DNA of 41,949 bases from Candidatus Omnitrophota bacterium (GTDB taxonomy: Bacteria; Omnitrophota; Gorgyraeia; Pluralincolimonadales; Pluralincolimonadaceae). The DNA lies in assembly GCA_041663405.1 (NCBI GenBank), contig JBAYMW010000001.1:1-41949 (forward strand), given 5' to 3'. The translations under genes were made by a program, and so were the position numbers. Below, piece by piece: positions 1,786 to 24,498 of the stretch. Under the pieces are notes generated by a model. The model was not told the origin of the DNA. It did no database searches and worked only from the letters and a program-made list of their open reading frames with translations. Numbering within the stretch: the stretch's first letter is position 1; each line of letters opens with the position of its first letter.

Positions 1786-4214
<2,429 letters not shown>

Positions 4215-10533: not shown

Positions 10534-10562
10534 AATATAACTCCGGCAAAAAATGTTGTCAA
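10534..10562 (-). promoter_or_regulatory. Sigma70-type promoter upstream of the EF-G paralog
   Basis: Minus strand reads TTGACA-17 nt-TATATT (-35 at 10557-10562, -10 at 10534-10539). It starts 15 nt after the K3 stop. Confidence 0.6.
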
Positions 10563-10577
10563 GCGAAAATGGCGGGG

Positions 10578-13500
10578 CTAATATTCCCGGCAGTACAACA
10601 CCTGCGCCTTGGGCAAATACGTGATCGTCACGTCCTCAAGGACAGGGGTTTCGAAAGCCGGCGTGCCGGTCGTCGAGATCGCCGACTGCTGCAGAACAAA
10701 GCTGTCCCAGTAATTATCCGTAGGTATCCAATTCCCCCAAACTCCTATTCCCGCGCGCACTTTTGTCGCGGATGCCGGGGCGGCAACCCAGCCCATATCC
10801 ATAAGTATATAATCACTGCCCACATTATGGCCCGATGAGGTCGGCAACGAACTCGAGGAAACAAGGTTGCCTCCGCTATCGTAAAATTTCAGCTCCAGGT
10901 CACCGTGCCAACTATCGCAGTCCGCGGACCATGAATACCATCCGCTGAATTTATATTTTGCACCTTTTACGCACGGTACTTCCTGGTATATCTCGGTATC
11001 CAGTTTACTGCTGCCACTGCCGGAACGCCGTCCATGGCGCAAGTGATATGTCCCCTCATACGGCTTAACATTGCTTGCTGTGGCGCCGTTAGCCGACACA
11101 ACCGTCCATGAGCTCAAACTCCCCGTCTCGAAACCGCCGTTGAGCAGGACATTGTCCCTATCCTCTACCGTTTCGGAATCAGTCGCGCTAAGCTTTGTCT
11201 TTACCGTTATCTTATCCGAAACCGTATTTATCGGCTGCCCTGATGACGGATCCGTCCAGTCGCCGCTCCAGGCCGTTTTCGTCCCGGTCGTATCTACGGA
11301 CAACGTTATGCCGCCGCCTTCATCCGCGATCTCATCGGGCACGGCCTGCGTCCAGGTGGCGGTACCCCAAAGGACGTTCTCCCCGGGGCTGAACTGCGGG
11401 GATTCATAGGTACCGCTCGCAGCGTAAAGACCGTTATTCATGTCGGCATTCACCTGGATCTCCGAACGCTCGGTAGGCCATATCCATACGGAACCTATGA
11501 CCGCATTGGAGAACTCAATCTTCCCCTGGGTGGTATTCCATTTGCTGTATTCGTTGCCGCACATGAAATCGTAGTCGGGGTCAGCCTTGTCGGCGTAATC
11601 GGAATGGTAATAATACACGTTCATGTTATCGGCGCCGGCTTGTCCGGAATTATTATTAAGCTTGCTCTCGCCGTTCAGGTATACATAGATCGGGCATACT
11701 TCCGAGATGTAGGTCCCCTCGGGATCACCCTTTATCGGGGAAGGGTTTCTCCATGTGACGGCCAGATGGTTCCATTTTCCCGCGTCCCAATGACCCCATC
11801 CCGTGCCGCCGTAAGGCCACCCAAACCAGGAATCCCCCCATTTAAAAAGGCCCTCCGAGAATCCCCATGCGTTTGCGGAGGTGTTCCATGTTCCTCCGCC
11901 CCATCTCGCCTCGGCATAGGTCCCGCCGCCATCCGACCACATGAACAATGTCACATACGGCATACCGTTCGGATCGGTAAAACCGTCGATGGCGCTGCCG
12001 CTCGTAAGCCGAAGGAACTTCCTGTCTATATCGGAATCACCATAGATCCTGGAATCCAGGCTGTTCCACTGCGTCTTGAACCATATCTCCATCGTCCCGC
12101 CCCCGGCAAGTATATTGTTTGGGGTCTTATAACAGGCCCATACCTGGTCAAAAACATCAACCAGCATGCCGTCCGGCATCAGGTCTCCCCTGTCGGCGAA
12201 ATCGGCCACGCTTCCAAGCTCAGGCTTATTCGATACATTGACCGGGGACTTGTTCCCGCCGGCGGCCGCGGCTTCAAGCGAAACCCTGTACGGCGCGTTG
12301 AACCATCCCGGGCCGTCTGCCGAGTCGGGCCCTCCGGCCGTCTTCCTGGCCAGCATTATCTGCCCGTCGTATGCCGCCGCGGACGGGGGCGTATCCTCCG
12401 CCTCTACAGGCTCGGGATATGTAGTCACGTTCGTCTTAGACGAACCGGACGCTTCCAACTGCTGCTGCGAGGTCAACCTGTATATATCGAATATCTTCAC
12501 GATAGCGGTAATATTCTTACGCGCAAGAGGCAATCCGGAACGACTGACCTCTCCGGATGAAGTCACCTCATAATAACCTCCCGAATTGAAGCTGAATTCT
12601 GTTGTATTCACGATCAGGCCCTTATCGTTCTCGTCCACAAGGCCGTTCTTGTTCCAGTCAATAAGGTATTTACCGATGTAGCCCATCTTATCGGCCCAGC
12701 CCGCATTACGTATCCACGAAAAACCCGTGTTTGGGCACGCGTTGGCCATCACGAGGTCCGCGTCCCTCGTACCTATGGAGCCGCAATTCACTATCGACAG
12801 GTAGAACTGGCTCCAATTCGAATAAGGCCTGTGGTCTATTATATACTGCGCGAGAAGGCCGGCCTCGGTGCTGCTTATCGACAGGGCGCCCCCGGAACAG
12901 GCATCGCATGCGGTGCTTGAAGTAGGGCCGTTTATCTGGCCGTCGCCGCCGCACTTAGGACAGGCATGCACCGCCCTTATGCCGGTCAGGACGGCCCGCA
13001 GCACCTCTTTGCTTGCGGTATTCACGTTTACGGGGGACCTTTTCTGCACCGCGTACGGCGACGAAACGTCTATAGGATTTACGGTCAACGGGTCAACATA
13101 TCCGAATACCGTCAGGTAATCCGCGACGGCGGCGTATTTATCCTCTATCTCCTGCCGGGTGGATCCGCTTATATGCAGCTTAATCTGTTCCTTCGTCGAA
13201 TATCCTCCCGAAGGACGGTTGTTCACTATATTCTCGCAATCCGTATCGGTCAATAAAGCGGGGCTGGATGTGCCGCTGAGGCTCTTAAGTATCTGTATAA
13301 GATTAGTGTTCTCGGCATCGTTGAGGTTTATGCGGCTGGCGCAGTCGACTACTGTAACGTTATACGTGCCCCTAAGGCCCCTGTTGAGATTGGCCGTCTC
13401 AGTGTAGAGGGCGATCGTCCCGTTATCATATGACGTATCGGCGATATCGACCGCATCCGTCGTCGCGCCTATCGAGCCGCACCTGAGTTCCGCTATCGCG

Positions 13501-13667
13501 CGCGATATCCCCGCATCGGCGGAAAGCTCCGCCTTGGCCGCATAATAATAGTTATAGGCTGTCTTAAGGCTTAATATGGACCCAATGGTAAACGACACGC
13601 CGACACAGGACAGGAACGTAAGGGCGCCCAAAGCTATGAGGATGGTTACCCCTCTTCTCAGGCGCAT
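10578..13667 (-). CDS. Giant GspK/PilX-like minor pseudopilin fused to LamG-like, beta-sandwich and CBM4/9-like modules (paralog K3)
   Basis: 1029 aa. N-terminus is MRLRRG|VTILIALGAL (basic-Gly-hydrophobic, no Glu+5). GspK hallmarks are VTVVDCASRINLND and the HhH SPVNVNTASKEVLRAVLTGI. It has CPKCGGDG-x11-CDACSGG, closing strands GGYYEVTSSGEV..NITAIVKIFD (about aa 400), and a LamG_3-like region MEIWFKT..WNHLAVTW..VYLNGE..AVIGSVWIW (about aa 520-735). Then come GTYESPQFSPGENVLWGTATW, a CBM-like NGGFETGSLSSWT (about aa 838-995) and the terminal TPVLEDVTITYLP. Confidence 0.75.
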   Translation of the reverse strand: MRLRRGVTILIALGALTFLSCVGVSFTIGSILSLKTAYNYYYAAKAELSADAGISRAIAELRCGSIGATTDAVDIADTSYDNGTIALYTETANLNRGLRGTYNVTVVDCASRINLNDAENTNLIQILKSLSGTSSPALLTDTDCENIVNNRPSGGYSTKEQIKLHISGSTRQEIEDKYAAVADYLTVFGYVDPLTVNPIDVSSPYAVQKRSPVNVNTASKEVLRAVLTGIRAVHACPKCGGDGQINGPTSSTACDACSGGALSISSTEAGLLAQYIIDHRPYSNWSQFYLSIVNCGSIGTRDADLVMANACPNTGFSWIRNAGWADKMGYIGKYLIDWNKNGLVDENDKGLIVNTTEFSFNSGGYYEVTSSGEVSRSGLPLARKNITAIVKIFDIYRLTSQQQLEASGSSKTNVTTYPEPVEAEDTPPSAAAYDGQIMLARKTAGGPDSADGPGWFNAPYRVSLEAAAAGGNKSPVNVSNKPELGSVADFADRGDLMPDGMLVDVFDQVWACYKTPNNILAGGGTMEIWFKTQWNSLDSRIYGDSDIDRKFLRLTSGSAIDGFTDPNGMPYVTLFMWSDGGGTYAEARWGGGTWNTSANAWGFSEGLFKWGDSWFGWPYGGTGWGHWDAGKWNHLAVTWRNPSPIKGDPEGTYISEVCPIYVYLNGESKLNNNSGQAGADNMNVYYYHSDYADKADPDYDFMCGNEYSKWNTTQGKIEFSNAVIGSVWIWPTERSEIQVNADMNNGLYAASGTYESPQFSPGENVLWGTATWTQAVPDEIADEGGGITLSVDTTGTKTAWSGDWTDPSSGQPINTVSDKITVKTKLSATDSETVEDRDNVLLNGGFETGSLSSWTVVSANGATASNVKPYEGTYHLRHGRRSGSGSSKLDTEIYQEVPCVKGAKYKFSGWYSWSADCDSWHGDLELKFYDSGGNLVSSSSLPTSSGHNVGSDYILMDMGWVAAPASATKVRAGIGVWGNWIPTDNYWDSFVLQQSAISTTGTPAFETPVLEDVTITYLPKAQVLYCREY

Positions 13668-13668
13668 T

Positions 13669-14655
13669 TTATTTGCCCATCCTCGGCATGGACGCCTCTA
13701 TCCTTATATCGTCCAACAACTCATTGAACATGTCTTCATTAAACAGCTTCTTCAGGTCATCGGGCCTTATCCTGGCCTTAGGGTCGTTCTTGACCTTATT
13801 ATATTTTACGGGGTCCTTCAGCTCAAGATCGCAGAATTGCCAAAGCTTTAAGATGGAATTTACGGCTATCGTAATCCCATCCTCCGCCCTCGGGAAGAAC
13901 ATATTACGCGAATCCTGCTTATTCCGGATCCCCTTCAAATACAACAACCACGTATTGGACCACTTATCCCAATCCCTCCCGACGAATTTTTTCTTTGCTG
14001 CGGAGAACTTGTCAGAGAACTCATTTTGCAGCGTCTCAAGTTTTGCCAGGGCCGCAGCTATCTTGCACTTTGCTTCGACCTCGGTTTTGACGATGTCGCC
14101 CAGGGTGCCCACATAAAGCTTGCAGGAATACTCGACAGTCCTTACCTTCGTGCCGAAGGCGAAATTGCTCCGGAGCATCTCCACTATATCCGGGGTTTGC
14201 CTTTCGGGCATGAAGATCACCGAAACGGTATATACGGCAGGGAAGAGCCTCCTCCTGGAAAACCTGAAATCCATCGAGATCCTATTATCGAAGACGCTAG
14301 TCCTGCCGGATGCAATGAACCTGTCCCGCCCCTTGATGTATATCTCTACCATTGCCCCGTTGGGCAGGGCCGCATCGCCCGCGACCGTGACCCGCACGTT
14401 ATCCCCCTGCGGCTCGTATGAGGCGTCTATCTTCAGGTCGTAGGGCAATTTGTTGTCTTTTGTCTTCTCGTCCCCGGGTGTGCCGGCGGTCTCCGGCTGG
14501 GTCTCTTCGGACGTCTCATCAGCGGTTTTGAAGAAATCATCGGGCAGAACCCCGCCGTTCTTAAGCAATATATCGTCGGCCGATGCACGGCCGGCAATAA
14601 AAAAAAGGACGGCCAAGATAAATAGCATCCCACCGCCCTTTTGAAAACTCAACAC
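13669..14655 (-). CDS. Secreted protein of unknown family, K-gene partner (paralog P3)
   Basis: I set the start at GTG 14655 (AGGAGG 7 nt upstream), giving (M)LSFQKGGGMLFILAVLFFIAGRASA|DDILLKNG. The alternative ATG 14628 has no charged n-region, and the ORF-track start 14733 lies inside K2. The stop is 1 nt before the K3 ATG. Paralogous to P1 and P2. Confidence 0.7.
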   Translation of the reverse strand: MLSFQKGGGMLFILAVLFFIAGRASADDILLKNGGVLPDDFFKTADETSEETQPETAGTPGDEKTKDNKLPYDLKIDASYEPQGDNVRVTVAGDAALPNGAMVEIYIKGRDRFIASGRTSVFDNRISMDFRFSRRRLFPAVYTVSVIFMPERQTPDIVEMLRSNFAFGTKVRTVEYSCKLYVGTLGDIVKTEVEAKCKIAAALAKLETLQNEFSDKFSAAKKKFVGRDWDKWSNTWLLYLKGIRNKQDSRNMFFPRAEDGITIAVNSILKLWQFCDLELKDPVKYNKVKNDPKARIRPDDLKKLFNEDMFNELLDDIRIEASMPRMGK

Positions 14656-14677
14656 AAGCCGCCCTCCTATCGCAGGA

Positions 14678-17600
14678 TCATTGCTGATAAAGTATCGTTG
14701 TCTTCGGCATATATGTAATACTGACATCTTCAAGAACAGGGGTCTCCAATACCGGGACGGTCACCGTCGAACCCTGCTCGATCACGGTAATATCGTCGAA
14801 ATACGTCGGGTTCGCGGGCGATCCTCCGCTTTGCCACGTACCGAACCGGGCCCTAACGGTAACTGCGTTGGCAGGCGCCGTGATCCAACCGCTGTCAGCC
14901 ATGTTCCACTGATCCCTTGTGTATAGATGGACATTCCACTGGTTGCTGCCGATGATCGACCCTGAGGAATTCAGGAACCTGTACCCGATGTAAGAACCCC
15001 AGTTGCCGGAACCGCCGCTTGGCACATAAGCCCAGCCGCTTATCCTGTATATTTTGCCCGGCGTGACAGAAACGTCTTGGTACTTTCCTCCGTCCCACCA
15101 GTTCTTTGCCATCTTGCCCCCGCCATGAGGCGTCGGCGGGCCCGTCAGGCTCCATACGTTGGTGCTCCAATCATTTACCCAGTCCGTTATGGCATCCGCG
15201 CATTCAAATCCCGGGGTGAGCAGCAGCTGTTTATTCGGTTGGGTTGATGAAGAAGATGCAGACGCAAGGGTCGCCCTATATGATATCGATTGGGACGAAG
15301 TATTGATGGGCTGGCCGCTGCCGGGGCTCGTCCAAGCACCGGAGAACGAACCCGAGGTATTGACGTCCATAGAAAGACTTTCATTCGCCGTAGGGATCGC
15401 CTGGGTCCACGCGATCGTCCCCCACCGCACCTGTTTTCCCGGAACGGGCGTGTACGACGGCGATACGTATGTCCCGCTATTGACATAAATACCGCTGCCG
15501 TATTCGCTGAGGACCTGGGAAGAAGACAGTTTGCTGTCCCATATTCTCACTGAACCTATAACTGCATTGAGCATATTCCTCGCGTAATGCGATGTCGACC
15601 CCGAACCCTGCCACCATTCATGGCCGACCATTAGATACTGCCACGAGCTGCTGTTCAAATATGGCAGATGATAGTAGTAGGGATCGCTCGTCTTGGCGGA
15701 ACCATCAAAATAACATATAAGGTCCGTTTGTGAGTAGTTCCCGGGAGGAGGCGAGAGCGTATTTGGCGGACCTTTCCCATCGTTCGCAGCCTTCTGCCAG
15801 GATATGACCAGCTGGTGCCAGGAACCGGGGTCCCACGGGCCGAAAAGCTCAGAGCCGGTATAATTCCGCGCGTATTCGATGGCCCATTCTCCGGAACCCT
15901 CGTTCTGACCGGGATAATATGCCCAGGCGGAGCCCGTCCAGTATCCGTAGCCCTGCGCGCCTATCGATACGCTCTTGGGCGTTCCGGAAAAGTTCTGCGA
16001 GTAGAATACAAATGTGGAGAACGGGTATTTAAGGGCCTCCCCGTTTATGGTATCCCTGCTCATGAGCCTTATAGCTTTCCTGTCGAAGCAATCGTCATTA
16101 TACATCTGGCAATCTTTCGCATACCACATCGGCTTGAACCAGATCTCAATAGTCCCGGCGTCCGACGATATGTTGCTGGACGGAAGATAATCGGGGCATA
16201 CGTTATCATACGTGTCCACTATGATGCCGTCCGGTACAAGCTCTCCCCTGCTCGTCCGCGACGCAACGCTTGCTATGTTGGGCATCGTGCCGGCCGGGCT
16301 GCCGCTGTTGGGCGGCGTCTGCAGCGCCGTAGAACCGCCCGCGGCGTCTGCATTGAGGGTAGAATAATAATTAGCCCTGAAATAGCTGCCGGAATTAGGC
16401 GTGGTCTTGACCGTCTTTCTAAGCATCAATTGGCCGTCATACGCAGCCGACGCCACTCCTCCCATCCTCGATTCGGGGTAGCTCTGGAGATCGGTCAGGG
16501 TCCCCGATTCAAAATCCGACTGCGACGTCTTTCTCAGTATATCGAATATCTTAACGGTACAATTTATCGTCTTTTGGGCCAGCACCGTGCCGGCCGCGCT
16601 CCTGACCGTTCCGGTGGAACTCAGCGAATAATACCCTCCGGAATTCAGGCTGAATTCCGTCGTGCTTACCCTCAAGCCCTTATCGCTGCTGCTCACCGCA
16701 CCGTTCTTATCTACGTCTATTACGTACTTGCCTGCCCTTCCAAGCTTATCTCCCCACCCTTCGCCCCTGACCCAGGAAAAACCGGTATTGGGATTAGCGT
16801 TGGCCATGACCAATTCCTGGTCAGATGATGTGTTCGTCCCCTGGTTAAAGAACGCCTTTACGGAAGAATAAAAAGACTCCCAGGAAGAATACGGCCTATG
16901 GGCCGGATTTGATGACGTGCCATCCCCGGCTATCCACAGGGCAAGGTTTTGGGCTTCGGTAGAAGTTATGGTCAAATTCCCCGTATTAGTCGAAGGAGAA
17001 CCGGAACCGTCACAATAAGGACAATCGATATGGCTATTGCTCGGATATACGGAATAATAATACCCGTCCCCTCCGCACATAGGACAGGAGTGGTCTGCCG
17101 TGATCCCGTTCAGGACGGCACGGAGTACCTCACGGCTTGCGGTATTTACGTTCACAGGAGACCTTGGCTGCAAGGCATAAGGCGTTGATATATCCTGGGG
17201 ATTCACCACGAGAGGGTCAACATACCCGAATTCGGTTATATAGGGTTCGATCCTGCGGTATTTCTCGTCCTTCTGCGCCGCAGTGCCCGTGAGGACATTT
17301 TTTATCTGCTGCTTGCAGGCGTACGGCCTGCCGGCCGCTATATTATCACAATCGGTATCGCTTAAGGACGTCAGGGTCGAAGTGATGGCCGTATTGAGGC
17401 TCTTCAGCATCTGCGATAACCGGGCATTGGTGTTTGGGTCGTTTATATTTATCCTGCTCGCGCAATCAACCACCGATACCGAATATCCGCCGTTGAACTG
17501 CAACAGCGTGCCGGAATAACCGGAAGTGAAACATATGTCCGATGCCGAATCTATCTGGTCGGAGGCCGCTCCGCTGGACCCGAACTTGAGCTCGGTTATG

Positions 17601-17782
17601 GCCTTTGCGATCCCTGCCTCGGCCATGTATTTTGCCATGACGGTGTTATGGAAATTGACCGAGGATTTTTGGTCAACTATCGCGACGATCGCGAGCATGC
17701 TCCCGATCAAGCCGAGGGCGCTCAACACCAGCAACGCTAAGACGATCGAAAAACCCATCTTCTTTCCGGCTTTATTTACCAT
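14678..17782 (-). CDS. Giant GspK/PilX-like minor pseudopilin fused to LamG-like, beta-sandwich and CBM-like modules (paralog K2)
   Basis: 1034 aa with N-terminus MVNKAGKKMG|FSIVLALLVLSAL, then VSVVDCASRININD, SPVNVNTASREVLRAVLNGI and CPMCGGDG-x16-CPYCDGSG. It has closing strands GGYYSLSSTGTV..INCTVKIFD and a LamG_3-like region IEIWFKP..WHQLVISW..AVIGSVRIWDSKLSSSQV. It ends with GTYVSPSYTPVPGKQVRWGTIAW and TPVLEDVSITYMP. Collinear with K3 throughout. Confidence 0.75.
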   Translation of the reverse strand: MVNKAGKKMGFSIVLALLVLSALGLIGSMLAIVAIVDQKSSVNFHNTVMAKYMAEAGIAKAITELKFGSSGAASDQIDSASDICFTSGYSGTLLQFNGGYSVSVVDCASRININDPNTNARLSQMLKSLNTAITSTLTSLSDTDCDNIAAGRPYACKQQIKNVLTGTAAQKDEKYRRIEPYITEFGYVDPLVVNPQDISTPYALQPRSPVNVNTASREVLRAVLNGITADHSCPMCGGDGYYYSVYPSNSHIDCPYCDGSGSPSTNTGNLTITSTEAQNLALWIAGDGTSSNPAHRPYSSWESFYSSVKAFFNQGTNTSSDQELVMANANPNTGFSWVRGEGWGDKLGRAGKYVIDVDKNGAVSSSDKGLRVSTTEFSLNSGGYYSLSSTGTVRSAAGTVLAQKTINCTVKIFDILRKTSQSDFESGTLTDLQSYPESRMGGVASAAYDGQLMLRKTVKTTPNSGSYFRANYYSTLNADAAGGSTALQTPPNSGSPAGTMPNIASVASRTSRGELVPDGIIVDTYDNVCPDYLPSSNISSDAGTIEIWFKPMWYAKDCQMYNDDCFDRKAIRLMSRDTINGEALKYPFSTFVFYSQNFSGTPKSVSIGAQGYGYWTGSAWAYYPGQNEGSGEWAIEYARNYTGSELFGPWDPGSWHQLVISWQKAANDGKGPPNTLSPPPGNYSQTDLICYFDGSAKTSDPYYYHLPYLNSSSWQYLMVGHEWWQGSGSTSHYARNMLNAVIGSVRIWDSKLSSSQVLSEYGSGIYVNSGTYVSPSYTPVPGKQVRWGTIAWTQAIPTANESLSMDVNTSGSFSGAWTSPGSGQPINTSSQSISYRATLASASSSSTQPNKQLLLTPGFECADAITDWVNDWSTNVWSLTGPPTPHGGGKMAKNWWDGGKYQDVSVTPGKIYRISGWAYVPSGGSGNWGSYIGYRFLNSSGSIIGSNQWNVHLYTRDQWNMADSGWITAPANAVTVRARFGTWQSGGSPANPTYFDDITVIEQGSTVTVPVLETPVLEDVSITYMPKTTILYQQ

Positions 17783-18836
17783 TATCCTCTCCGGTCTGGA
17801 TCGACAATTCTTCCTTGATCCTTATTATGATATTCCCGCACTCCCTGTTAAGATTTGCAAATTGCGCGGCATCGGACCGCTGCGAATCCCTGAAATATGC
17901 ATTATAAAGACTGGTCAGGCTGTCGGCGGTATCCGCTATGTTCTTTTGTGCGTACGGGTAATATCCGGCGGAACCGTATTTGGACCCGTTGAACTCCGCG
18001 ATCTTCCGCTTTAGTATCTTAAGCCGCGAGCGCCACCTGTCGGACCATACGGATTGCGCATCGACATCTATGACATGCAGCCTGACCTTAACGACATCGT
18101 TAAGATCGGCATAAAGGCCTTCCAGCTCTTTAGCCAGGGGCGCGAGCGCCGCACAGGCGGCTTTTTCCGATTCGGATATCTCTTTTTCATCGCCCACGCT
18201 GAAAGAGCAAGTCGCGCTGGTCAGGGATGCCCCCTTATCCATTTTTTCCAAAACAGCCGGCTGCTGGTTATCGGGAATAAAGACCGCCTCAGCCGAATAA
18301 TTTCCCTTTGATATGTGCATACCTACGGTCTGGAACGATATATCGAAAGTACCCTTGTCGACCATGCACCTGCCGCTCAACATGAGACCGCCGGCGCCTT
18401 TTACGAAAACGCCGATCAGCGAACCGTCAGGAAAGACCGTCTTCCCTTCAACATTAATTAGGTTCCTGTCCCCGGCGTAATCTGCGCGTATATCCAGGGC
18501 CAGGGAAGAGCCGTCGGCCGGAACGCTGCTATACTGGAACTTTACCGGCGCAGCCTCTTCAGGTACTGGGGCTTTCTCCTCTTTCTTCTGGAAGAAATCG
18601 GCCGGAAGCTCGCTCTCCGAGACAGATTCGACATCCTCCTGCCTCAGGGAGACCGTCCCCAGGCTTGTCCTGACCTCTAACAAAGAAATGCTTGAGGAGA
18701 TAACGTCGCCCTGTATGGTCCTGCCGTTCTTAAGAAGGATCTCGTCGGCGCAAACGCAGTTGCCATACAGCATAACCAAAAAAAATGCCGGCAAGGCCCA
18801 CGCAAATTTCCTCATCCGATCAGCCATTCCAGACAC
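17772..18836 (-). CDS. Secreted protein of unknown family, K-gene partner (paralog P2)
   Basis: 354 aa. GTG 18836 is preceded by GGGGGGGGAG + 5 nt. Signal peptide is ..MRKFAWALPAFFLVMLYGNCVCA|DEILLKNGRTIQGDVI. The 3' end overlaps the K2 ATG by 11 nt. Confidence 0.7.
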   Translation of the reverse strand: MSGMADRMRKFAWALPAFFLVMLYGNCVCADEILLKNGRTIQGDVISSSISLLEVRTSLGTVSLRQEDVESVSESELPADFFQKKEEKAPVPEEAAPVKFQYSSVPADGSSLALDIRADYAGDRNLINVEGKTVFPDGSLIGVFVKGAGGLMLSGRCMVDKGTFDISFQTVGMHISKGNYSAEAVFIPDNQQPAVLEKMDKGASLTSATCSFSVGDEKEISESEKAACAALAPLAKELEGLYADLNDVVKVRLHVIDVDAQSVWSDRWRSRLKILKRKIAEFNGSKYGSAGYYPYAQKNIADTADSLTSLYNAYFRDSQRSDAAQFANLNRECGNIIIRIKEELSIQTGEDNGK

Positions 18837-18863
18837 GTGGTCTCCCCCCCCTTGCTCGTTACA

Positions 18864-18892
18864 AGTATATCATATATTCCGCATCATTCCAA
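18864..18892 (-). promoter_or_regulatory. Possible internal promoter upstream of P2
   Basis: Minus strand reads TTGGAA-17 nt-TGaTATACT (-35 at 18887-18892, overlapping the P1 stop; -10 at 18864-18869). It matches consensus less well than the other promoters here. Confidence 0.4.
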
Positions 18893-19876
18893 GCCGGCCG
18901 TAGATACAGACAATTCCCGGACCGTTCCGGACATGGCGTCTTCGAAAGACTGCCTGAGGACCTTCGCATTCTGCACCGGCAGGACATGACCGGCGGATCT
19001 TGCGCCCGATGAATTGAGGTCTATCGTATAGGCCCTCATAAGCAGCGGAAGCTGGCGGAAGCAGAACTGCAGCCTCCTCTGCGATACGGGATGCAGCGAT
19101 ATAAGGTACGCGCCGGAATTGTCCTGAAACCTTTTCCCGGCCGCGCTAACTTTCGAAGCCCATTTCCTCGACCAATCCTTCCACCCCGGTCCGTCATTCG
19201 ACGTCCTGAAATTTTCATAAGCCCTGTTAAGCTCTCTATACAGGCCATCAGCCTCTTTCGCGACATCAGCAAGATACTCCTTCGCCCTCGTCTCATCTGC
19301 TTTCGCCCTCTCGACGGTACCGATAGTGATCGCGAACGGCTCGGAATACGCTTTACCGCCGCCAACCGACGCTTCTGCCTTTACGGTATATTTCCCGGCC
19401 ATTATCTCCTTCTTAAAAGGCCCGAACGCTACATAGAACTCTCCCCTTTTTACGCGCGACTCCTTCACCATTACGATGCTTTCGCCCTGCATGAAATATA
19501 CCCTGAGCGGGGTATTGTTCGGATATGAGCTCGTGCCGCTGACAAAAACCTTGTTCCTCGTGAACTCCGCCTTCAGCTTAATATCCGCCGAAGCAGTCTT
19601 ATTTATTTCCGCTTCCTCCGGGATCACTTCCAGATCGGGCAATTCAACGGTCGAATAACCTTCCGCGGGCTCTTTTATCTCGAACGATTTTATATCCTTC
19701 CTGCTGAGCCTCATCTTGCCCGAACCGAGTTTTATCTCGAGATAATCACCGGTCTGTTCAAGTATCCTGCCTTCCAGCGTCCTGCCGTTCTGCAGCACTA
19801 TTATATCAGCACGTGACGAAGCCGGTACGAGAAATACCATTAAAACGACAAGTGATATCCATCCGAATTTCATCAT
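18884..19876 (-). CDS. Secreted protein of unknown family, K-gene partner (paralog P1)
   Basis: I set the start at ATG 19876, where CTATGATG makes an ATGA overlap with the K1 stop and AGGGAAGG lies upstream. Signal peptide is MMKFGWISLVVLMVFLVPASSRA|DIIVLQNGRTLEGRI. Confidence 0.7.
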   Translation of the reverse strand: MMKFGWISLVVLMVFLVPASSRADIIVLQNGRTLEGRILEQTGDYLEIKLGSGKMRLSRKDIKSFEIKEPAEGYSTVELPDLEVIPEEAEINKTASADIKLKAEFTRNKVFVSGTSSYPNNTPLRVYFMQGESIVMVKESRVKRGEFYVAFGPFKKEIMAGKYTVKAEASVGGGKAYSEPFAITIGTVERAKADETRAKEYLADVAKEADGLYRELNRAYENFRTSNDGPGWKDWSRKWASKVSAAGKRFQDNSGAYLISLHPVSQRRLQFCFRQLPLLMRAYTIDLNSSGARSAGHVLPVQNAKVLRQSFEDAMSGTVRELSVSTAGLE

Positions 19877-22764
19877 AGGCCTTCCCTGCAATATTCTATT
19901 TTTATTCGCGGCAGGTATGTGATGGTGACATCCTCAAGGACCGGCGTCCTTGAGCTGACCGAATAATTGTCCCTGATTATGCTCGACGTGGACAGCACCG
20001 CCTTATACTGTATGCATGGATCGGTCCCGGATAGTGACGCACCGTTCGTAAGCGAGGTCCCCCATGATAAATCCGATGGCGGCAAGCTTGATTTGGACGA
20101 ACCCCTTCTGGCATATAATGTCAGCGCCGTGCTAGTCGGCTGGGTCTGCGGAGACCATGTAATGGTGCCCCATCTTACGTTCGACCCCGCATAGAAAGGA
20201 ACCGATGCAATATAACCGTTCTCGGGAATGGCGCGGAAATTGTCCCAGTGCGTCTGAAGTTTTGTGACAGCGCCGGCCTTGTCGAAGTCGCTTGGGCCGA
20301 TCGTGCACTGTCCCCTGTCAAAATCCGCCCAATCCCACCCGAGGTACTGGTTATTGGCTATATATTTGAATATGGTCTCGTTGGCCGCCGGATATGTGGG
20401 CGACCAGGTAGAATATGCCCCGGCCGCGCCGTTCTTCCATGCCCTGAACGACCCGCTGCTGCTGGTACTGGAACCGGTCATAGCCAGCATCTTTTCCGGA
20501 AGGTAATCGGACTGTGTATAGAACATCCGCGCGGTCATCCTTATCTCGCTGACGTCGCCGAAACAATAAAGTGGTTTTGGTTCCGTGGTTACGGATGTCG
20601 TGCCGTGGCTATCCGTGCAGAGCGTCTTGAAGCCCCTTACCTCAAAAGTCTCACCGTAGGATCCGGTAGACCAGGTATCGTCCTGGACTCCCTTAGCGAA
20701 AATCCAGCACCCGCAGAACGGCGCTTCCGGCTGCCAATAAGTATAGGTGCCGGGAGCAGGTATGCTTTCGAGAGACCAGCTTGCGGGGCGGCTCACGTTA
20801 TAGATATAGGTAGGATTCCCGCTTGCGTCATACACCGGATATACTTCCGGCTCACCGGTGTGCTCCGCAATATTTCCGTCAAAGACACCGTTGGAATTCA
20901 GGTCGTAATAATAGACCCACCTGCTGCTGCCATCGTAAAGCCGCGTTGTCGGCGGCGGGAACGATAAAGGATATACCGTGCCGGTCCCGCGCCATGCGAT
21001 CCGGGTCGAAGGGGCCGATTCCTTGACGAACGCCCTGACAAGCACGCTGTTCGTGTTCGGCCTGAAATAGTTACGATTAAGCTCGAAATGTTTGCTCTCA
21101 AACGTATTTATATCAAGAAATACTTCCCTGTCGCTGTCGCCGTCGTTATCGCAAAAATCCTGGTAGCTTACATTAAGGGTGTCCCGGCCCCACCATGACC
21201 TGTTCCAGTAATACCCTTTCATCATGACCGCGGAGAATGCCGGATCATCGTCTATGTTGTCCCAGAATCCGAGCTTAACGGAGTCCTGCGTTTTCGCATA
21301 CGTCGAGGTATCCCACAGCATTTTCCCTGCGCCGGCGTTCCAGTCGTCCCGTTCGGTCGGGCAGCTGTCGAGCCAGTTCACATTGAAGACTTCGCCGTCC
21401 TGGAAATTCCCGAGCCTGCCGAACCACGCGGCATAGAACTCCTCTTTCGTAGTTTGGGTCCATGTCCCGAATACCGTGATGATCGCCGATGCCTGCTTTA
21501 CCGCCGTTACCTTCCCGCCTTTCATGACATTGGCCGTAGCACCGACGGTCAGTATCCCGGCGTGGTTGTAGCTATTCGCTGGTTCTGTCCTTGGGTCATA
21601 ACCGAGCCTCTCGGCGGGTACAGGTACAGCCGACCCGAAAGAAGCGTTCTTCCATCTAAGCTGGACCGAGTTATGGAACGTCTGATCGTAATATTCAAGG
21701 CGTATCCTGTGCCATCCGGGCGCCGCAAAAGTATAAGTACCCGATGCCGTCCTGTCCCACGGGTAGTTCTCGGTCGTCAATTTATCCGTCCAGCGCGAGC
21801 AGACAAGCGTATCGTTTATGTAAAACCTCGCGCCGTCATCGCAAGCGATCCAAAAGGTTATCGGGGAACCCGCCTCCGTATCAAGGATCTCGATATAGCC
21901 GGTCCATATCACGCCGAATGTCGTGAGGCCGTAATCGCTGACCGTAGCTATAGTGCCGCCGCCCGCGAACTCGGCATCATGCGTCTCGGCCCATGTGTCC
22001 CCTCCGTCGCCGTCGGTGCCCGGCATGATCGCGTCATCAGGCGTCTGGTATACCTCTCCCAGCTCAACGACCTTCTCCGTAAAACTCGACTTGTCGATGG
22101 AGACGCTCGGGGACGAGCCCGTAAGGTTGCTGTAATACCTTCCGAGCAAACCGCCGCGTATTATCGGCTTGCTGACGGTCACCCTGTGCTTGTTGCCGGT
22201 AAAGACCGCCTGCGTTATCCCGGTGGCAACGCATATCTCGTTCACTGTATCGAAAGGCGCGTTCTTGCATTGCGCCGTGCCCTCTATGTTGCCGGCCGTC
22301 CCGCCGACAACCGTATTTACCGAATCGCTGTCCCTGTAATCTATGATATTGGCTATCTGCTGGTTGGTGAGAAAGGTCAACAGTTCCGTTATCTGGCTCG
22401 CGTCGGTCTCGTCGAAGGTATTGATATTGACCATGTCCTCTCCGCTCGAGATCCTGAGGGTATACGTGCCTTCGCCGAAAGCCACGTTCATGCCGCTCGA
22501 AAGCACATAGTTATAGACATAGCTCTTCAGGTCCGCATATGTGCTCGTAAGCACCCGGTTGCGAATATCCGCGACGGCCTTATTGATACCGGCCTCCGCG
22601 ATATACCTGGCTTTTACCGCGTTGACGTAATTGGCCGCCTCATTCCTGGCCATCATCATATTGATCGCGAAACTGATACCGATAATGGAAAGTAGGCCAA
22701 GTATCCCTATGGCCATCAGGAGGGCAACACCCCTCTTCTCTCTCCCGCGTTTACTCGTCAACAC
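19873..22764 (-). CDS. Giant GspK/PilX-like minor pseudopilin with PA14 domain and large C-terminal beta-rich region (paralog K1)
   Basis: The start is uncertain. I chose GTG 22764 (or TTG 22761) because the ORF-track TTG 22848 lies inside the -10 of a consensus promoter. N-terminus is ..KRGREKRG|VALLMAIGILGLL. It has YTLRISSGEDMVNIN and the HhH-like APFDTVNEICVATGIT. PA14 reads GLLGRYYSN..FGVIWTGYIEI..FWIACDDGARFYINDTLV..HRIRLEYYDQTFHNSVQLRWKN. The closing strands are GILTVGATANV..ASAIITVFG, there are DxDxDG-type loops, and the terminal motif is TPVLEDVTITYLP. Confidence 0.7.
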   Translation of the reverse strand: MLTSKRGREKRGVALLMAIGILGLLSIIGISFAINMMMARNEAANYVNAVKARYIAEAGINKAVADIRNRVLTSTYADLKSYVYNYVLSSGMNVAFGEGTYTLRISSGEDMVNINTFDETDASQITELLTFLTNQQIANIIDYRDSDSVNTVVGGTAGNIEGTAQCKNAPFDTVNEICVATGITQAVFTGNKHRVTVSKPIIRGGLLGRYYSNLTGSSPSVSIDKSSFTEKVVELGEVYQTPDDAIMPGTDGDGGDTWAETHDAEFAGGGTIATVSDYGLTTFGVIWTGYIEILDTEAGSPITFWIACDDGARFYINDTLVCSRWTDKLTTENYPWDRTASGTYTFAAPGWHRIRLEYYDQTFHNSVQLRWKNASFGSAVPVPAERLGYDPRTEPANSYNHAGILTVGATANVMKGGKVTAVKQASAIITVFGTWTQTTKEEFYAAWFGRLGNFQDGEVFNVNWLDSCPTERDDWNAGAGKMLWDTSTYAKTQDSVKLGFWDNIDDDPAFSAVMMKGYYWNRSWWGRDTLNVSYQDFCDNDGDSDREVFLDINTFESKHFELNRNYFRPNTNSVLVRAFVKESAPSTRIAWRGTGTVYPLSFPPPTTRLYDGSSRWVYYYDLNSNGVFDGNIAEHTGEPEVYPVYDASGNPTYIYNVSRPASWSLESIPAPGTYTYWQPEAPFCGCWIFAKGVQDDTWSTGSYGETFEVRGFKTLCTDSHGTTSVTTEPKPLYCFGDVSEIRMTARMFYTQSDYLPEKMLAMTGSSTSSSGSFRAWKNGAAGAYSTWSPTYPAANETIFKYIANNQYLGWDWADFDRGQCTIGPSDFDKAGAVTKLQTHWDNFRAIPENGYIASVPFYAGSNVRWGTITWSPQTQPTSTALTLYARRGSSKSSLPPSDLSWGTSLTNGASLSGTDPCIQYKAVLSTSSIIRDNYSVSSRTPVLEDVTITYLPRIKIEYCREGL

Positions 22765-22847
22765 GTTTCGATAACTTCCAACATTCGTGGGTCCTTTTGC
22801 TTGTTTTTCGGTGTTTTGCCCCAGGAAAGAATAACCCTCAACATACA

Positions 22848-22876
22848 ATTTTAGAGCATGAAATGCGCTTTGTCAA
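22848..22876 (-). promoter_or_regulatory. Sigma70-type promoter upstream of K1
   Basis: Minus strand reads TTGACA-17 nt-TAAAAT (-35 at 22871-22876, -10 at 22848-22853), preceded by an AT-rich tract (AACAAAATCATACCAAAAAGCAATAAAG). Confidence 0.6.
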
Positions 22877-22925
22877 CCTTACTTTATTGCTTTTTGGTAT
22901 GATTTTGTTGCTGGCTATCTCTGCC

Positions 22926-23615
22926 CTATTGCGGGATATAAACACTTGTAACAAACGTCTGGGACCTTGTAGAATTCGGTTCCTTGATAATGAGAGTTAT
23001 CTCGACTTTTGTGGGCTTCTTACCTATTTGAGTTGCGCCGCCGCTTGATGTGGAATTCCAACCGGTGGTTACAGTACCTGCGGAATCAAAAAACCTTAAG
23101 GAAAATCCCGTTACGTTCTTCGCGACCTTCGATGACGTGCCGGCCATGCCGGCGCCGAAGGCATAATCAGGTGAAGCAGCGGTCTGGGCGTAATAAAACC
23201 TCATAAGCTCACTGGTTGAACTGTTCAGCCAATACCCCACCTTGCACAATTCAAACTTAGCGGTTGAGTCGTTCAAGGTCGGGTTAAGCGCGGCAATGAA
23301 GAACACCTCGCTCGCGCTGCTTGGCGTAACCCATGTGCTCCCGCCTGAGGCATATCCCCGGAATGTGATATTTGCGTTGTTGGAACTCAGGAATGCCGCA
23401 GAAAGGTCCCTCGTCAGCCAGTCAATAGTGACTCGCGCGGTCTGGTAGACCTCAAGGTGCGCCTGCGTCCTGCTCCACGACTCGAGCCCCGCCCTGAAGA
23501 CGACAAAAAGCGATAACGCGATTATCGCGAATATGACCGATACTACGAGGATCTCAACTAACGTGAGCCCTTTTCTACGGGCCGAGCGACGGGATAAGAG
23601 TGACAAAGTCCTCAT
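22926..23615 (-). CDS. GspJ/PilW-like minor pseudopilin
   Basis: 229 aa with prepilin signal MRTLSLLSRRSARRKG|LTLVEILVVSVIFAIIAL and a PulJ-like layout (..TARVTIDWLTRDLSAA.., ..KVGYWL....L.R.., ..FSLRFFDSAG.., ..VEITLII). The ATG has AAGGAAGG 7 nt upstream. It overlaps the gspI-like 3' end by 41 nt. Confidence 0.8.
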   Translation of the reverse strand: MRTLSLLSRRSARRKGLTLVEILVVSVIFAIIALSLFVVFRAGLESWSRTQAHLEVYQTARVTIDWLTRDLSAAFLSSNNANITFRGYASGGSTWVTPSSASEVFFIAALNPTLNDSTAKFELCKVGYWLNSSTSELMRFYYAQTAASPDYAFGAGMAGTSSKVAKNVTGFSLRFFDSAGTVTTGWNSTSSGGATQIGKKPTKVEITLIIKEPNSTRSQTFVTSVYIPQ

Positions 23616-23946
23616 TGAATGTCCTTCCTTTGTAATCCCACGATATCCTGACGGTGGTAAGCACCAGGCTGCCCGTGGGAGCCACCTGTGTAGTCGAGAT
23701 CGTATAGCGGAACTTCGGGTCGGTGAACACGCCGGACGTGGCCGTCGTGACTGGATAGCCCAGCCTCTTGAGCTCTTCCATAGTGTTCTGCGCGTATATG
23801 GTCGCCTTGGTCAGGTCTGCGGAACGGTTCGCCGAATCGAAACCGACCGGGAAGAGCGCAAGCACCGCGAGGATCCCTATGACCAGTATCGCCAGCGATA
23901 TCAATATCTCTATTAGGGTAAAACCGTTCTTATCGAAAGTCTTCAT
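23575..23946 (-). CDS. GspI/PilV-like minor pseudopilin
   Basis: 123 aa with MKTFDKNG|FTLIEILISLAILVIGILAVLALFP, and the size and layout of GspI. ATGA overlap with the gspH-like stop. Confidence 0.8.
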   Translation of the reverse strand: MKTFDKNGFTLIEILISLAILVIGILAVLALFPVGFDSANRSADLTKATIYAQNTMEELKRLGYPVTTATSGVFTDPKFRYTISTTQVAPTGSLVLTTVRISWDYKGRTFNEDFVTLIPSLGP

Positions 23947-24404
23947 TCAAGGGCTCCTGTGGTCCTGTTAACGGTTATCGTCTTGTTCGCCTTAGGGTTC
24001 TGGACCGTGATCGCGTTAACGGCGGTAGTACTGGTCAGCCCCCCATTCGCGGCAAATGTGACGGTCGTGATCGCGGCAGTGCTGTAAGTCACACCGCCCG
24101 GAAGATTGAATATCTTGTTCTGCGTCGTTCCGGCAGCATTCGTTATCCTGTACGTACCCGGCGTCACCGTGCCGTTGAACTCGGCGCTGAAATTTGCGTT
24201 CTGCGATACCGCATAGCTGCGGGCCGTGCGAAGGACCGTCATGATCTCGCGTTCTGCCGCCTTAAGCCCTGTGCTGCCGGAGAAACCCGTAAAAAAAGGT
24301 ATGCTCATAGCAAGGAACGCAAGCATTATCACGAGGACTATCGACATCTCGATAAGCGTGTAACCCCGACGGCCGCAGGCCCTGACGGAACGTAAAATTT
24401 TCAT
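23943..24404 (-). CDS. GspH/FimT(FimU)-like minor pseudopilin
   Basis: 153 aa with MKILRSVRACGRRG|YTLIEMSIVLVIMLAFLAM and the GspH-type helix LKAAEREIMTVLRTARSYAVSQN followed by beta strands. Confidence 0.8.
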   Translation of the reverse strand: MKILRSVRACGRRGYTLIEMSIVLVIMLAFLAMSIPFFTGFSGSTGLKAAEREIMTVLRTARSYAVSQNANFSAEFNGTVTPGTYRITNAAGTTQNKIFNLPGGVTYSTAAITTVTFAANGGLTSTTAVNAITVQNPKANKTITVNRTTGALE

Positions 24405-24410
24405 AGGAAA

Positions 24411-24438
24411 ATTATACCATATATTGGGATAGTGTCAA
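24411..24438 (-). promoter_or_regulatory. Consensus sigma70 promoter of the pseudopilin operon (probably leaderless)
   Basis: Minus strand reads TTGACA-16 nt-TGgTATAAT-tttcct-ATG (-35 at 24433-24438, -10 at 24411-24416, ATG at 24404-24402). There is no SD. Confidence 0.65.
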
Positions 24439-24460: not shown

Positions 24461-24498
24461 AGAAAATAAAGAGGCCCGCTGTCATTACAACAGCGGGC
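24461..24498 (-). terminator. Rho-independent terminator of the rrn operon
   Basis: Minus strand reads GCCCGCTGT-TGTAATG-ACAGCGGGC (9-bp stem) followed by CTCTTTATTTTCT, about 10 nt after 5S. Confidence 0.8.

Follow-up and report, generated by a model that had tools for sequence, protein, structure and literature searches.

A minor-pilin locus of Omnitrophota encodes three candidate apex subunits that continue into carbohydrate-binding-type modules

How type IV filaments gain ligand specificity at their tips is an open question in the field. Two solutions are known, a separate PilY1 protein plugged on PilK in diderm bacteria and modular minor pilins in monoderms. A locus in a 41,949-nucleotide stretch of DNA from Candidatus Omnitrophota bacterium (assembly GCA_041663405.1, contig JBAYMW010000001.1, positions 1 to 41,949; the window) points to a third layout, in which a GspK/PilK-class apex subunit itself carries the modules, ends in a conserved domain not described before, comes with an obligatory partner gene and exists in several alternative copies per genome. 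Behind the rRNA (rrn) operon, nine tightly packed open reading frames (ORFs) run on the minus strand in the order H-I-J-K1-P1-P2-K2-P3-K3, where H, I and J encode small prepilin-type proteins, K1 to K3 encode proteins of about 1000 residues and P1 to P3 encode exported partners. All nine are present at the coordinates given by the initial annotation of this DNA. We consider it reasonably likely that the locus is a relocated minor-pilin operon of a type IV pilus (T4P) of the Planctomycetes-Verrucomicrobia-Chlamydiae (PVC) type, with a shared H-I-J base, three alternative glycan-binding apex subunits and their cognate P proteins.

The three small genes are H (23943–24404; GspH/FimU class, 153 residues, signal RRG/YTLIEM), I (23575–23946; GspI/PilV class, 123 residues, KNG/FTLIEI) and J (22926–23615; GspJ/PilW class, 229 residues, RKG/LTLVEI). 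A six-frame scan of the window for the motif G/[FYL]TL[IV]E returns exactly three sites, those of H, I and J, and each protein matches the Pfam family N_methyl above its gathering score (23.8, 31.7 and 26.4 bits, respectively). H also matches Pfam GspH above the cutoff (24.0 bits versus 21). The remaining family matches fall under their cutoffs: TIGR pilV (8.7e-10) and gspI (3.7e-7) for I, and Pfam T2SSJ (22.6 bits versus 28, E 1.4e-4) and TIGR gspJ (7e-8 over 180 of 192 positions) for J. The three class III prepilin signals first noted in this order are thus borne out by the scan and by the N_methyl, GspH and T2SSJ-type matches, and the sequence data support the assignment of H, I and J as GspH/I/J-class minor pilins.

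K1 (19873–22764, 963 residues, GTG start at 22764, KRG/VALLM), K2 (14678–17782, 1034 residues, KMG/FSIVL) and K3 (10578–13667, 1029 residues, RRG/VTILI) are three times the usual size of GspK, which is about 300–350 residues. K3 is identical to the protein with NCBI locus tag WCY23_00055 from a metagenome-assembled genome (MAG) of Candidatus Omnitrophota. The translations of all three have glycine at position −1 and isoleucine, leucine or methionine in place of the glutamate at +5. A missing Glu+5 is the rule for GspK-class subunits and one of their hallmarks. None of K1 to K3 matches N_methyl in Pfam (signature IPR012902). K3 matches Pfam T2SSK (PF03934) with 26.0 bits versus a cutoff of 24.2, only over the 19 residues of a helix-hairpin-helix, and K2 matches weakly (0.017). 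K1 matches the NCBIfam model T2SS_GspK (NF037980; 1.8e-4, model positions 2–198) and stays below the PilX_N cutoff (13.9 bits versus 25.5). In a set of 47 members of the K family, T2SSK is matched by 32 (best 2.1e-10) and PilX_N (PF14341) by 17 at E ≤ 0.01 (best 4.4e-6). At the level of sequence, the proposed resemblance to T2SSK and PilX_N is weak in the window proteins and consistent across the family.

An AlphaFold2 model of K3 residues 1–440, calculated with 46 homologs in the alignment, has a mean predicted local distance difference test score (pLDDT) of 77.9. In this model, an N-terminal helix of 60 residues precedes two strands, a large insertion made of helices and the closing strands. 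Its sole significant fold match in the PDB, found with Foldseek, is XcpX/GspK (6utu_C, E 2.8e-4, probability 1.0, template modeling (TM) score 0.47 on the target). Entry 6utu is the Pseudomonas XcpVWX tip complex, of which XcpX is the GspK. For K3, a GspK-like fold is thus recovered in the part (about the first 400 residues) in which GspK/PilX hallmarks were first noted. The helix-hairpin-helix (residues 210–227, RSPVNVNTASKEVLRAVL, 12987–13040, minus strand) is the T2SSK signature and lies in the alpha-domain; its columns Arg-210, Asn-214, Asn-216, Val-222 and Ala-225 are invariant or nearly so. Directly after it, within the alpha-domain of what would be an exported pilin, K3 carries a zinc-ribbon-like CxxC...CxxC insertion (residues 235–258, 12894–12965, minus strand) with weak DnaJ_CXXCXGXG and Anti-TRAP matches. 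This insertion is also found in K2, not in K1, and in 20 of 92 K homologs.

K2 and K3 are 53% identical over residues 1–410 and 38% identical over the remainder. K1 is more divergent. It aligns with K3 only over about residues 1–153, lacks the helix-hairpin-helix motif, and consists of a short GspK-like N terminus, a PA14 domain, about 480 unassigned residues and a conserved C-terminal domain. The GspK hallmarks that had been ascribed to all three proteins (VVDCASRINLND, SPVNVNTAS and ITAIVKIFD) are found in K2 and K3, whereas K1 diverges and has its PA14 domain before the closing strands. Taken together, profile and fold support K2 and K3 as GspK/PilX-class apex subunits, and K1 more weakly.

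Beyond the pilin module, the models and family matches support the view that all three K proteins continue in cis into beta-sandwich modules of sugar-binding type. The PA14 domain of K1 (21646–21933, minus strand; PF07691, 31.3 bits versus a cutoff of 24, 2e-7), inserted ahead of the closing strands, matches the PA14 proteins 6qdi (8.4e-10) and 6qe7 in the PDB. The model of full-length K3 (pLDDT 83.8, predicted TM score 0.78) matches carbohydrate-binding modules (CBMs) of families CBM16, CBM22 and CBM61 and a porphyran-binding CBM in Foldseek, with TM scores of 0.7–0.8 and E values of 1e-6 to 1e-7. The matching part is a CBM4/9/16/22-like beta-sandwich (residues 838–1000, 10668–11156, minus strand), and its Pfam CBM_4_9 score lies just under the cutoff (6e-5, 23.9 bits versus 25.9). 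K2 comprises the helix-hairpin-helix, the CxxC..CxxC insertion, a LamG-like region and a C-terminal domain with an inserted beta-sandwich. Laminin_G_3 is matched by 14 of the 47 K homologs (best 1.9e-13) and by none of the window K proteins in Pfam. Of the modules first proposed, PA14 in K1, a CBM fold in K3 and LamG among relatives are therefore recovered, whereas Laminin_G_3 in the window proteins is not and CBM_4_9 remains below its cutoff.

K1, K2 and K3 share the ending ...TPVLEDVTITYLPxxxxxY. In K3 it forms a C-terminal beta-hairpin (TPVLEDVTITYLPKAQVLY, residues 1007–1028, 10584–10649, minus strand) that is conserved throughout the family and is modeled as strands 1009–1018 and 1022–1028 with pLDDT values of 81–93. 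Among 92 distinct K homologs (600–1572 residues, from Omnitrophota and Planctomycetota), at least 65 have the TPVLEDVTITY ending, although their middle parts are wholly different. A beta-sandwich of about 90–110 residues (WGTxxW ... I.Y.A.L ... TPVLEDVTITY) has this hairpin as its final two strands. Comparison with uninterrupted C-terminal domains suggests that the CBM-like module of K2 and K3 sits in a loop of this sandwich. The isolated domain matches no Pfam family, and a profile of the C-terminal motif finds no relative among PDB sequences. PDB sequence searches with K3, K1, the K profile, the P profile and the C-terminal motif profile returned only PA14, a marginal LamG-like match, a marginal XcpX match on the helix-hairpin-helix, and noise. 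For residues 394–417 of K3, the pLDDT is below 50 when the N-terminal part is modeled alone and above 90 when the whole protein is modeled, which is an indirect hint only of a contact between the hairpin and the pilin beta-sheet.

Each K gene has a partner. P1 (18884–19876, 330 residues) starts where K1 stops; its paralog P2 (17772–18836, 354 residues) overlaps the start of K2 by 11 nt; and the further paralog P3 (13669–14652) stops 1 nt before the start of K3. The start of P3 is uncertain (14652 or 14628), and protein P0049 is P3 called from the later start. The order K1-P1-P2-K2-P3-K3 thus gives the pairs (K1,P1), (P2,K2) and (P3,K3). The initial annotation was right in counting three K and three P genes and not in their order and pairing. 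A strict K-then-P order for every pair is ruled out by this arrangement and by a P-then-K pair at another locus (L014), where P ends at the start of K as in P2-K2 and P3-K3. In about 40 loci from both phyla, the start of a P-family gene lies −18 to +7 bp from the stop of K. The two genes therefore form a conserved pair that is probably translationally coupled, in agreement with the secreted partner first assigned to each K.

The P proteins are 17–27% identical to one another, and each has a Sec signal peptide. An SH3/Sm-like barrel, which is optional and missing from P3, is followed by a linker rich in Pro and Glu, a beta domain of Ig-like type and a helical domain, in which the motif W..WS..W is invariant. 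P1 matches NCBIfam Lepto_7_Nterm (2e-8). P1–P3 and 26 P relatives match no Pfam family apart from marginal SH3/LSM-like matches, and the P profile finds no relative in the PDB. An exhaustive search of 1.84 billion representative sequences with this profile gives 27 proteins at E ≤ 1e-30 and 136 at E ≤ 1e-10. The Ig-like segment (profile positions 112–175 or so) is repeated 8–19 times in giant proteins of 1477–5344 residues (P0100, P0107, P0114, P0116, P0119 and others), and there may be a link between these and the giant surface proteins that have been reported from Omnitrophota.

A scan of GTDB species representatives gave 194 relatives of the locus in Omnitrophota and Planctomycetota, of which 76 loci were kept and annotated by BLAST with the proteins of one Pfam-annotated cluster; H-I-J sets were surveyed where they adjoin K. 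The arrangement H-I-J-K1-P1-P2-K2-P3-K3-EF-G-YebC-RuvCAB recurs in at least eight related genomes (L004, L005, L006, L010–L013 and L017), and because the whole locus is syntenic there, it is not a chance assembly. Orthologs are 75–78% (K1), 55% (K2) and 73–75% (K3) identical, compared with 25–39% between paralogs. Each K version thus has orthologs of its own, and the triplication is old and has been maintained. The MAG of the window has a fourth K (WCY23_02995, P0031) of the type found at locus L020, and a sister genome (CAZYUB01) has five K loci, namely L014, L020, L029 and L031 besides the syntenic triple locus L013. Altogether, 92 distinct K proteins of at least 600 and up to 1572 residues were found in Omnitrophota and Planctomycetota, so that by sequence a large, module-bearing K is the norm in both phyla and not peculiar to the window. 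MAGs labeled "uncultured Planctomycetia bacterium (binchicken)" (CAZAEH01 and CAZYUB01; L010, L013, L014, L019, L020, L023, L029 and L031) show near-identical synteny and 70–75% K3 identity with Candidatus Omnitrophota, and their label is probably wrong. On three JGI contigs (L001–L003), a single-copy K homolog of 1009 residues lies beside defense genes (ApeA/HEPN, and SMODS plus S_4TM). An indel of about 7.5 kb immediately upstream of K distinguishes L001 from L002, and the insert holds a 119-residue fragment of a K N terminus (L001 5454–5813).

The window contains no gene for a major pilin, assembly ATPase, platform protein, secretin or prepilin peptidase, and the neighbors of the locus are the rrn operon and housekeeping genes, as had been noted. 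In more distant Omnitrophota and Planctomycetota, homologous blocks lie inside complete machine clusters of the form PilB-(PilT)-PilB-PilC-pilin (T2SSG domain)-H-I-J-K-[P]-PilM/N-Amuc_1100-like-...-secretin (L008, L030, L040, L041, L043, L044, L051, L080 and L083). The H, I and J proteins of these clusters are homologous to those of the window, with E values down to 1e-34. In BLAST comparisons, H and J of the window match their counterparts in L040 with 2e-18 and 2e-32, and I matches the I genes of machine clusters with 5e-18 to 1e-24. The K genes of the clusters encode 673–930 residues, the PilB-type ATPases carry MshEN domains, and the PilM proteins carry PilN domains (NCBI name type IV pilus assembly protein PilM). 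The machine is type IVa-pilus-like because PilM/N and PilT are present, though its pilins score best with families of the type II secretion system (T2SS). Type IVa pilus genes are reported from nearly all Omnitrophota (Seymour et al., PMC10066038). Two further Omnitrophota clusters (L086 and L087) read PilB-PilT-PilB-PilC-PilM-...-secretin with no genes between PilC and PilM, the arrangement expected of a genome that keeps its minor-pilin block elsewhere, as in the window. The locus was first described as an orphan. It does lie apart from machine genes, but it is not free-standing; with such blocks inside the clusters of relatives, and clusters without them elsewhere, "orphan" is better read as relocated. 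The Amuc_1100-like protein that follows PilM/N (Pfam PF28028, an Akkermansia pili-associated family) is encoded at 18655–19443 of L008, 11651–12409 of L086 and 11612–12352 of L087.

K-P pairs of Omnitrophota also occur away from the H-I-J locus, and in at least 20 loci they are surrounded by genes for carbohydrate utilization. A mannan-type set of GH5+CBM9, GH113, GH130, ROK, a sugar ABC transporter, LacI and GH2 (GH, glycoside hydrolase) is found at L007, L025, L026, L028, L029 and L033, and GH94, GH2, GH35/42 and a regulator are found at L009, L016 and L019–L022. At L020, the K-P pair is followed by a GntR/LacI-type regulator, GH94, a CBM30/CBM11 protein and GH9+CBM30, and L031 encodes a CBM11+PEP-CTERM protein, K, GH26+CBM9, a regulator and GH94. 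A small PEP-CTERM protein lies immediately ahead of a solo K in L007 (9195–9944), MtNMDc37 (2376–3116) and L031 (9253–9897), which suggests a third recurrent partner of K-P cassettes. The one in L031 has the CBM11 domain and a similarity to surface glycan-binding protein B (SGBP_B).

The locus has promoter-like sites of its own. The H-I-J promoter (24411–24438, minus strand) reads TTGACA-16-TGgTATAAT, which matches the sigma-70 consensus at 12 of 12 positions and has an extended −10 element. The ATG of H lies 7 nt past the −10 box, so the mRNA of H is probably leaderless or nearly so. This promoter and its spacing are kept in L004, L005 and L006 while the flanks diverge. A second promoter (22848–22876, minus strand; TTGACA-17-TAAAAT) precedes K1-P1-P2-K2-P3-K3. 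It lies in the J-K1 intergenic region (22765–22925), which is unusually conserved in a five-genome alignment. Conserved elements of this spacer are an ATTCTTTCCTGG box just downstream of the promoter and AGCAAT..CCAAA.AGCAA upstream of the −35 element. The conserved K1 leader matches no Rfam family, and the spacer might serve to bind a regulator or act as a leader.

Upstream of H-I-J, the rrn operon is complete (16S, tRNA-Ile, tRNA-Ala, 23S and 5S), and an intrinsic-terminator-like hairpin behind the 5S gene (24474–24498, minus strand; 11-bp stem with seven GC pairs, T tract) separates it from the pilin locus. The succession of 5S and H is also seen in L006. Farther upstream lie genes for TyrRS, ribosomal protein S1, PlsC, Cmk, aromatic amino acid genes, ScpA, TrpRS and IF-2. 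K3 is followed by genes for an EF-G-family protein (either EF-G itself or a paralog), YebC, RuvCAB, SpoIID, QueA and Tgt. The EF-G-family GTPase (683 residues, 8425–10476, minus strand) keeps its position directly behind K3 in all syntenic genomes and has its own promoter-like site (10534–10562).

We propose that the locus is a priming and tip-complex operon that would have moved from the machine genes to a site behind the rrn operon, with strong promoters of its own. The base of the tip complex, made of H, I and J, would be common to all versions, with K1, K2 and K3 as alternative apex subunits, each built of a pilin module that seats on I and J, variable modules (PA14, LamG-like and CBM-like) and the C-terminal beta-sandwich of about 100 residues. 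Each filament would be primed by one H-I-J-K complex, so that the glycan specificity of the tip would depend on the K incorporated. A PilT-type motor, as seen in relatives, could then pull the cell onto a polymer or a glycan-coated surface. The Sec-exported cognate P most likely escorts or stabilizes K in the periplasm, or travels with it to the tip. This role of an escort or co-tip factor is favored by analogy with TfcP and PilY1 (PMC8833165), or with the position of PilY1 after PilX. The proposal builds on gene identities, folds, synteny, the K-P coupling and the genomic associations, and under it K would assemble into the tip, bind glycans and be exchangeable, with P in its supporting role. 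Alternative tips are suggested because three K genes accompany one H-I-J set, because CAZYUB01 has five K loci, and because K2 and K3 are more alike in the pilin module than in the effector part.

Several points weigh against this proposal. The T2SSK/GspK matches of the window K proteins are weak (19–26 bits), and scores with NCBIfam T2SS_GspK reach 13.8–21.1 bits versus an equivalog cutoff of 130. The pilin module of K1 is poorly supported, and the seating of K on I and J would follow only from homology and from the adjacency of the genes. The folds of CBM, PA14 and LamG modules are no proof of glycan binding, and P has no recognizable function. A PilM search with a query from the closest machine-linked relative returned 10 proteins, none of them from the window MAG, and further H-I-J sets may exist in these genomes beyond the K-adjacent ones surveyed. 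The secretin would also have to let through a compact tip subunit of about 110 kDa, as is known for PilY1.

Three other explanations have to be weighed, and the first concerns the kind of machine. The locus could encode a T2SS-like pseudopilus in which the lectin modules of K recognize cargo, whether glycoside hydrolases, CBM proteins or P, and push it through the secretin without any role in adhesion. The best family matches are indeed those of T2SS proteins (GspH, T2SSJ and T2SSK/GspK), the pilin beside H in relatives has a T2SSG domain, K-P pairs adjoin secreted GH9, GH26 and GH5 enzymes and CBM proteins, and P, like T2SS substrates, carries a Sec signal. Yet the clusters hold a PilT-type ATPase, a PilM-PilN fusion and two PilB-type ATPases with MshEN domains, and GspC, GspL and GspM were not recognized in the clusters surveyed. 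We know of no T2SS with 600–1200 residues of bulk at its tip. Clusters of this type have been scored as type IVa pili in Omnitrophota (PMC10066038), and we regard secretion of cargo as an unlikely function. A quite different departure is that K is no filament subunit at all, but an inner-membrane-anchored or periplasmic glycan-binding protein that keeps a pilin-like helix, with P as a periplasmic partner in sugar capture. K does lack Glu+5, N_methyl is undetected in it, and many K-P pairs lie far from H-I-J and beside ABC sugar transporters. The lack of Glu+5 is normal for GspK, however, and Gly-1 is retained in K1, K2 and K3; K is the next gene after H-I-J both in the window and in every machine cluster surveyed, and the pilin module is the best-conserved part of K2 and K3. 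This explanation appears very improbable. What favors the tip model is that PilT and PilM/N are encoded with these genes in relatives, that K strictly adjoins H-I-J and that the pilin module is the better conserved part.

The remaining alternative accepts the same apparatus and changes its ligands: the K proteins would bind glycans on host or prey surfaces in an epibiotic or parasitic lifestyle rather than in polysaccharide foraging. Omnitrophota have been described as ultra-small bacteria that show traits of host dependence, and their symbiosis-related genes are listed as including those for type IVa pili (PMC10066038); lectin-like N-terminal domains of PilC/PilY1 mediate host adhesion (bioRxiv 10.64898/2026.09.18.752573); and the three K genes of the window stand in a housekeeping context with no locus of carbohydrate-active enzymes. 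On the other hand, the recurrent genomic partners of solo K-P pairs are catabolic genes for cellulose, mannan and beta-glucan and sugar transporters under GntR/LacI regulators, and the window gives no indication of a host. A host-directed function thus has, in our judgment, a low probability.

The many K copies within cellulose and mannan catabolic loci make a connection of pili with polysaccharide foraging concrete and open to test in phyla without cultured models, and the finding bears on the debate on whether Omnitrophota are host-dependent or free-living and saccharolytic. We put forward only tentatively, as rather doubtful on present evidence, a wider proposal for Omnitrophota and probably Planctomycetota: K-P cassettes would be plug-in, substrate-specific tips, and the C-terminal domain might fold back on the pilin module of K as a built-in PilY1-type plug that stabilizes PilK. 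Many apex genes would then be regulator-controlled parts of individual polysaccharide-utilization loci that share one H-I-J base and one retractile machine, a pilus-based counterpart of Sus-like glycan capture. With the C-terminal domain folded back, K would be a natural PilK-adhesin-plug fusion. The simple reading of the hairpin as a free plug is weakened because it forms the last strands of a folded domain of about 100 residues and not a free tail.

Comparison with known systems shows which parts of the locus have precedents. With the GspK-GspI-GspJ complex (XcpX-XcpV-XcpW, PDB 6utu) it shares the H-I-J-K gene order, a K with a class III signal that lacks Glu+5, and a helix-hairpin-helix alpha-domain within the pilin fold. 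In contrast to GspK, the K proteins are three times larger, carry PA14, LamG-like or CBM-like modules and a C-terminal beta-sandwich, occur as three paralogs and score far under the equivalog cutoff, and the machine in relatives has PilT and PilM/N. The four-gene prepilin-type cassette Verru_Chthon A–D of the PVC group (TIGR02596, TIGR02598, TIGR02599 and TIGR02600) is similar in outline, and H, I and J match D, B and C weakly. Identity with it is rejected by the scores (H 20.5 bits versus 70, I 28.6 versus 51.4, J 32.3 versus 256.5) and by the lack of any K match to A at E ≤ 1.

The PilX/PilK and PilC/PilY1 systems resemble the locus in having an adhesin gene after a K-type gene and paralogous adhesins per genome, but here the adhesin-like part and the K pilin are joined in one polypeptide. 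No PilY1-type family or beta-propeller was found with Pfam in K1–K3, P1–P3, 47 K relatives or 26 P relatives, and K and P are thus not PilY1. The C-terminal plug of PilY1 docks on PilK; such plugs are reported to be poorly conserved, and an engineered PilK-plug fusion is functional (bioRxiv 10.64898/2026.09.18.752573). The K hairpin, in contrast, belongs to a domain of about 100 residues that is sequence-conserved across phyla, and the plug mechanism, a recent proposal, could be examined on the K family as it occurs in nature. In Myxococcus xanthus, multiple sets of minor pilins and PilY1 serve under different conditions, and the periplasmic TfcP supports its cognate adhesin (PMC7541494, PMC9109919, PMC8833165). 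The alternative tips proposed here have a parallel in these adhesins, and TfcP is a possible analogy for P. M. xanthus duplicates four minor pilins together with PilY1, however, whereas here one H-I-J set has several K genes, and P is unrelated to cytochrome c.

The architecture had initially not been recognized as a described system. Modular pilins and alternative tip adhesins have been published (PMC8179133, PMC9934059, PMC9109919), and what stands of that statement is the K-type carrier, the K-P pair and the C-terminal domain. In the literature covered, which leaves subscription journals outside, no description was found of a GspK-class carrier, its C-terminal domain, the K-P pair, several K genes per H-I-J set, or K-P cassettes in catabolic loci. 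The modular pilins include PilC (lectin module) and PilB (von Willebrand factor A module) of Streptococcus sanguinis; PF13385 (LamG-type) and PA14 are among the commonest grafts, and a location at the tip is predicted for them (PMC8179133, PMC9934059). As in those proteins, a pilin module here bears a module from a family that is not pilus-specific (PA14 and CBM-like, and LamG in relatives). Those pilins, however, are defined by N_methyl, have mostly simple pilin modules and come from monoderms, whereas the carrier described here is a GspK-class apex subunit of diderms that is invisible to N_methyl, has nested insertions and comes with an obligatory partner gene.

T4P have also been tied to polysaccharide attachment in the cellulolytic Firmicutes Caldicellulosiruptor bescii and Ruminococcus (bioRxiv 10.1101/614800, PMC3672088). 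As in these bacteria, and as for the surface glycan-binding proteins of Bacteroidota, putative attachment proteins of Omnitrophota are encoded beside, or co-regulated with, polysaccharide-degrading genes. In the Firmicutes, the pilin itself binds and there is a single pilus locus, and the SusD-like and SGBP proteins of Bacteroidota are lipoproteins and not pilins. The K-P pairs, in contrast, would be cassettes for tip subunits that are scattered into catabolic loci.

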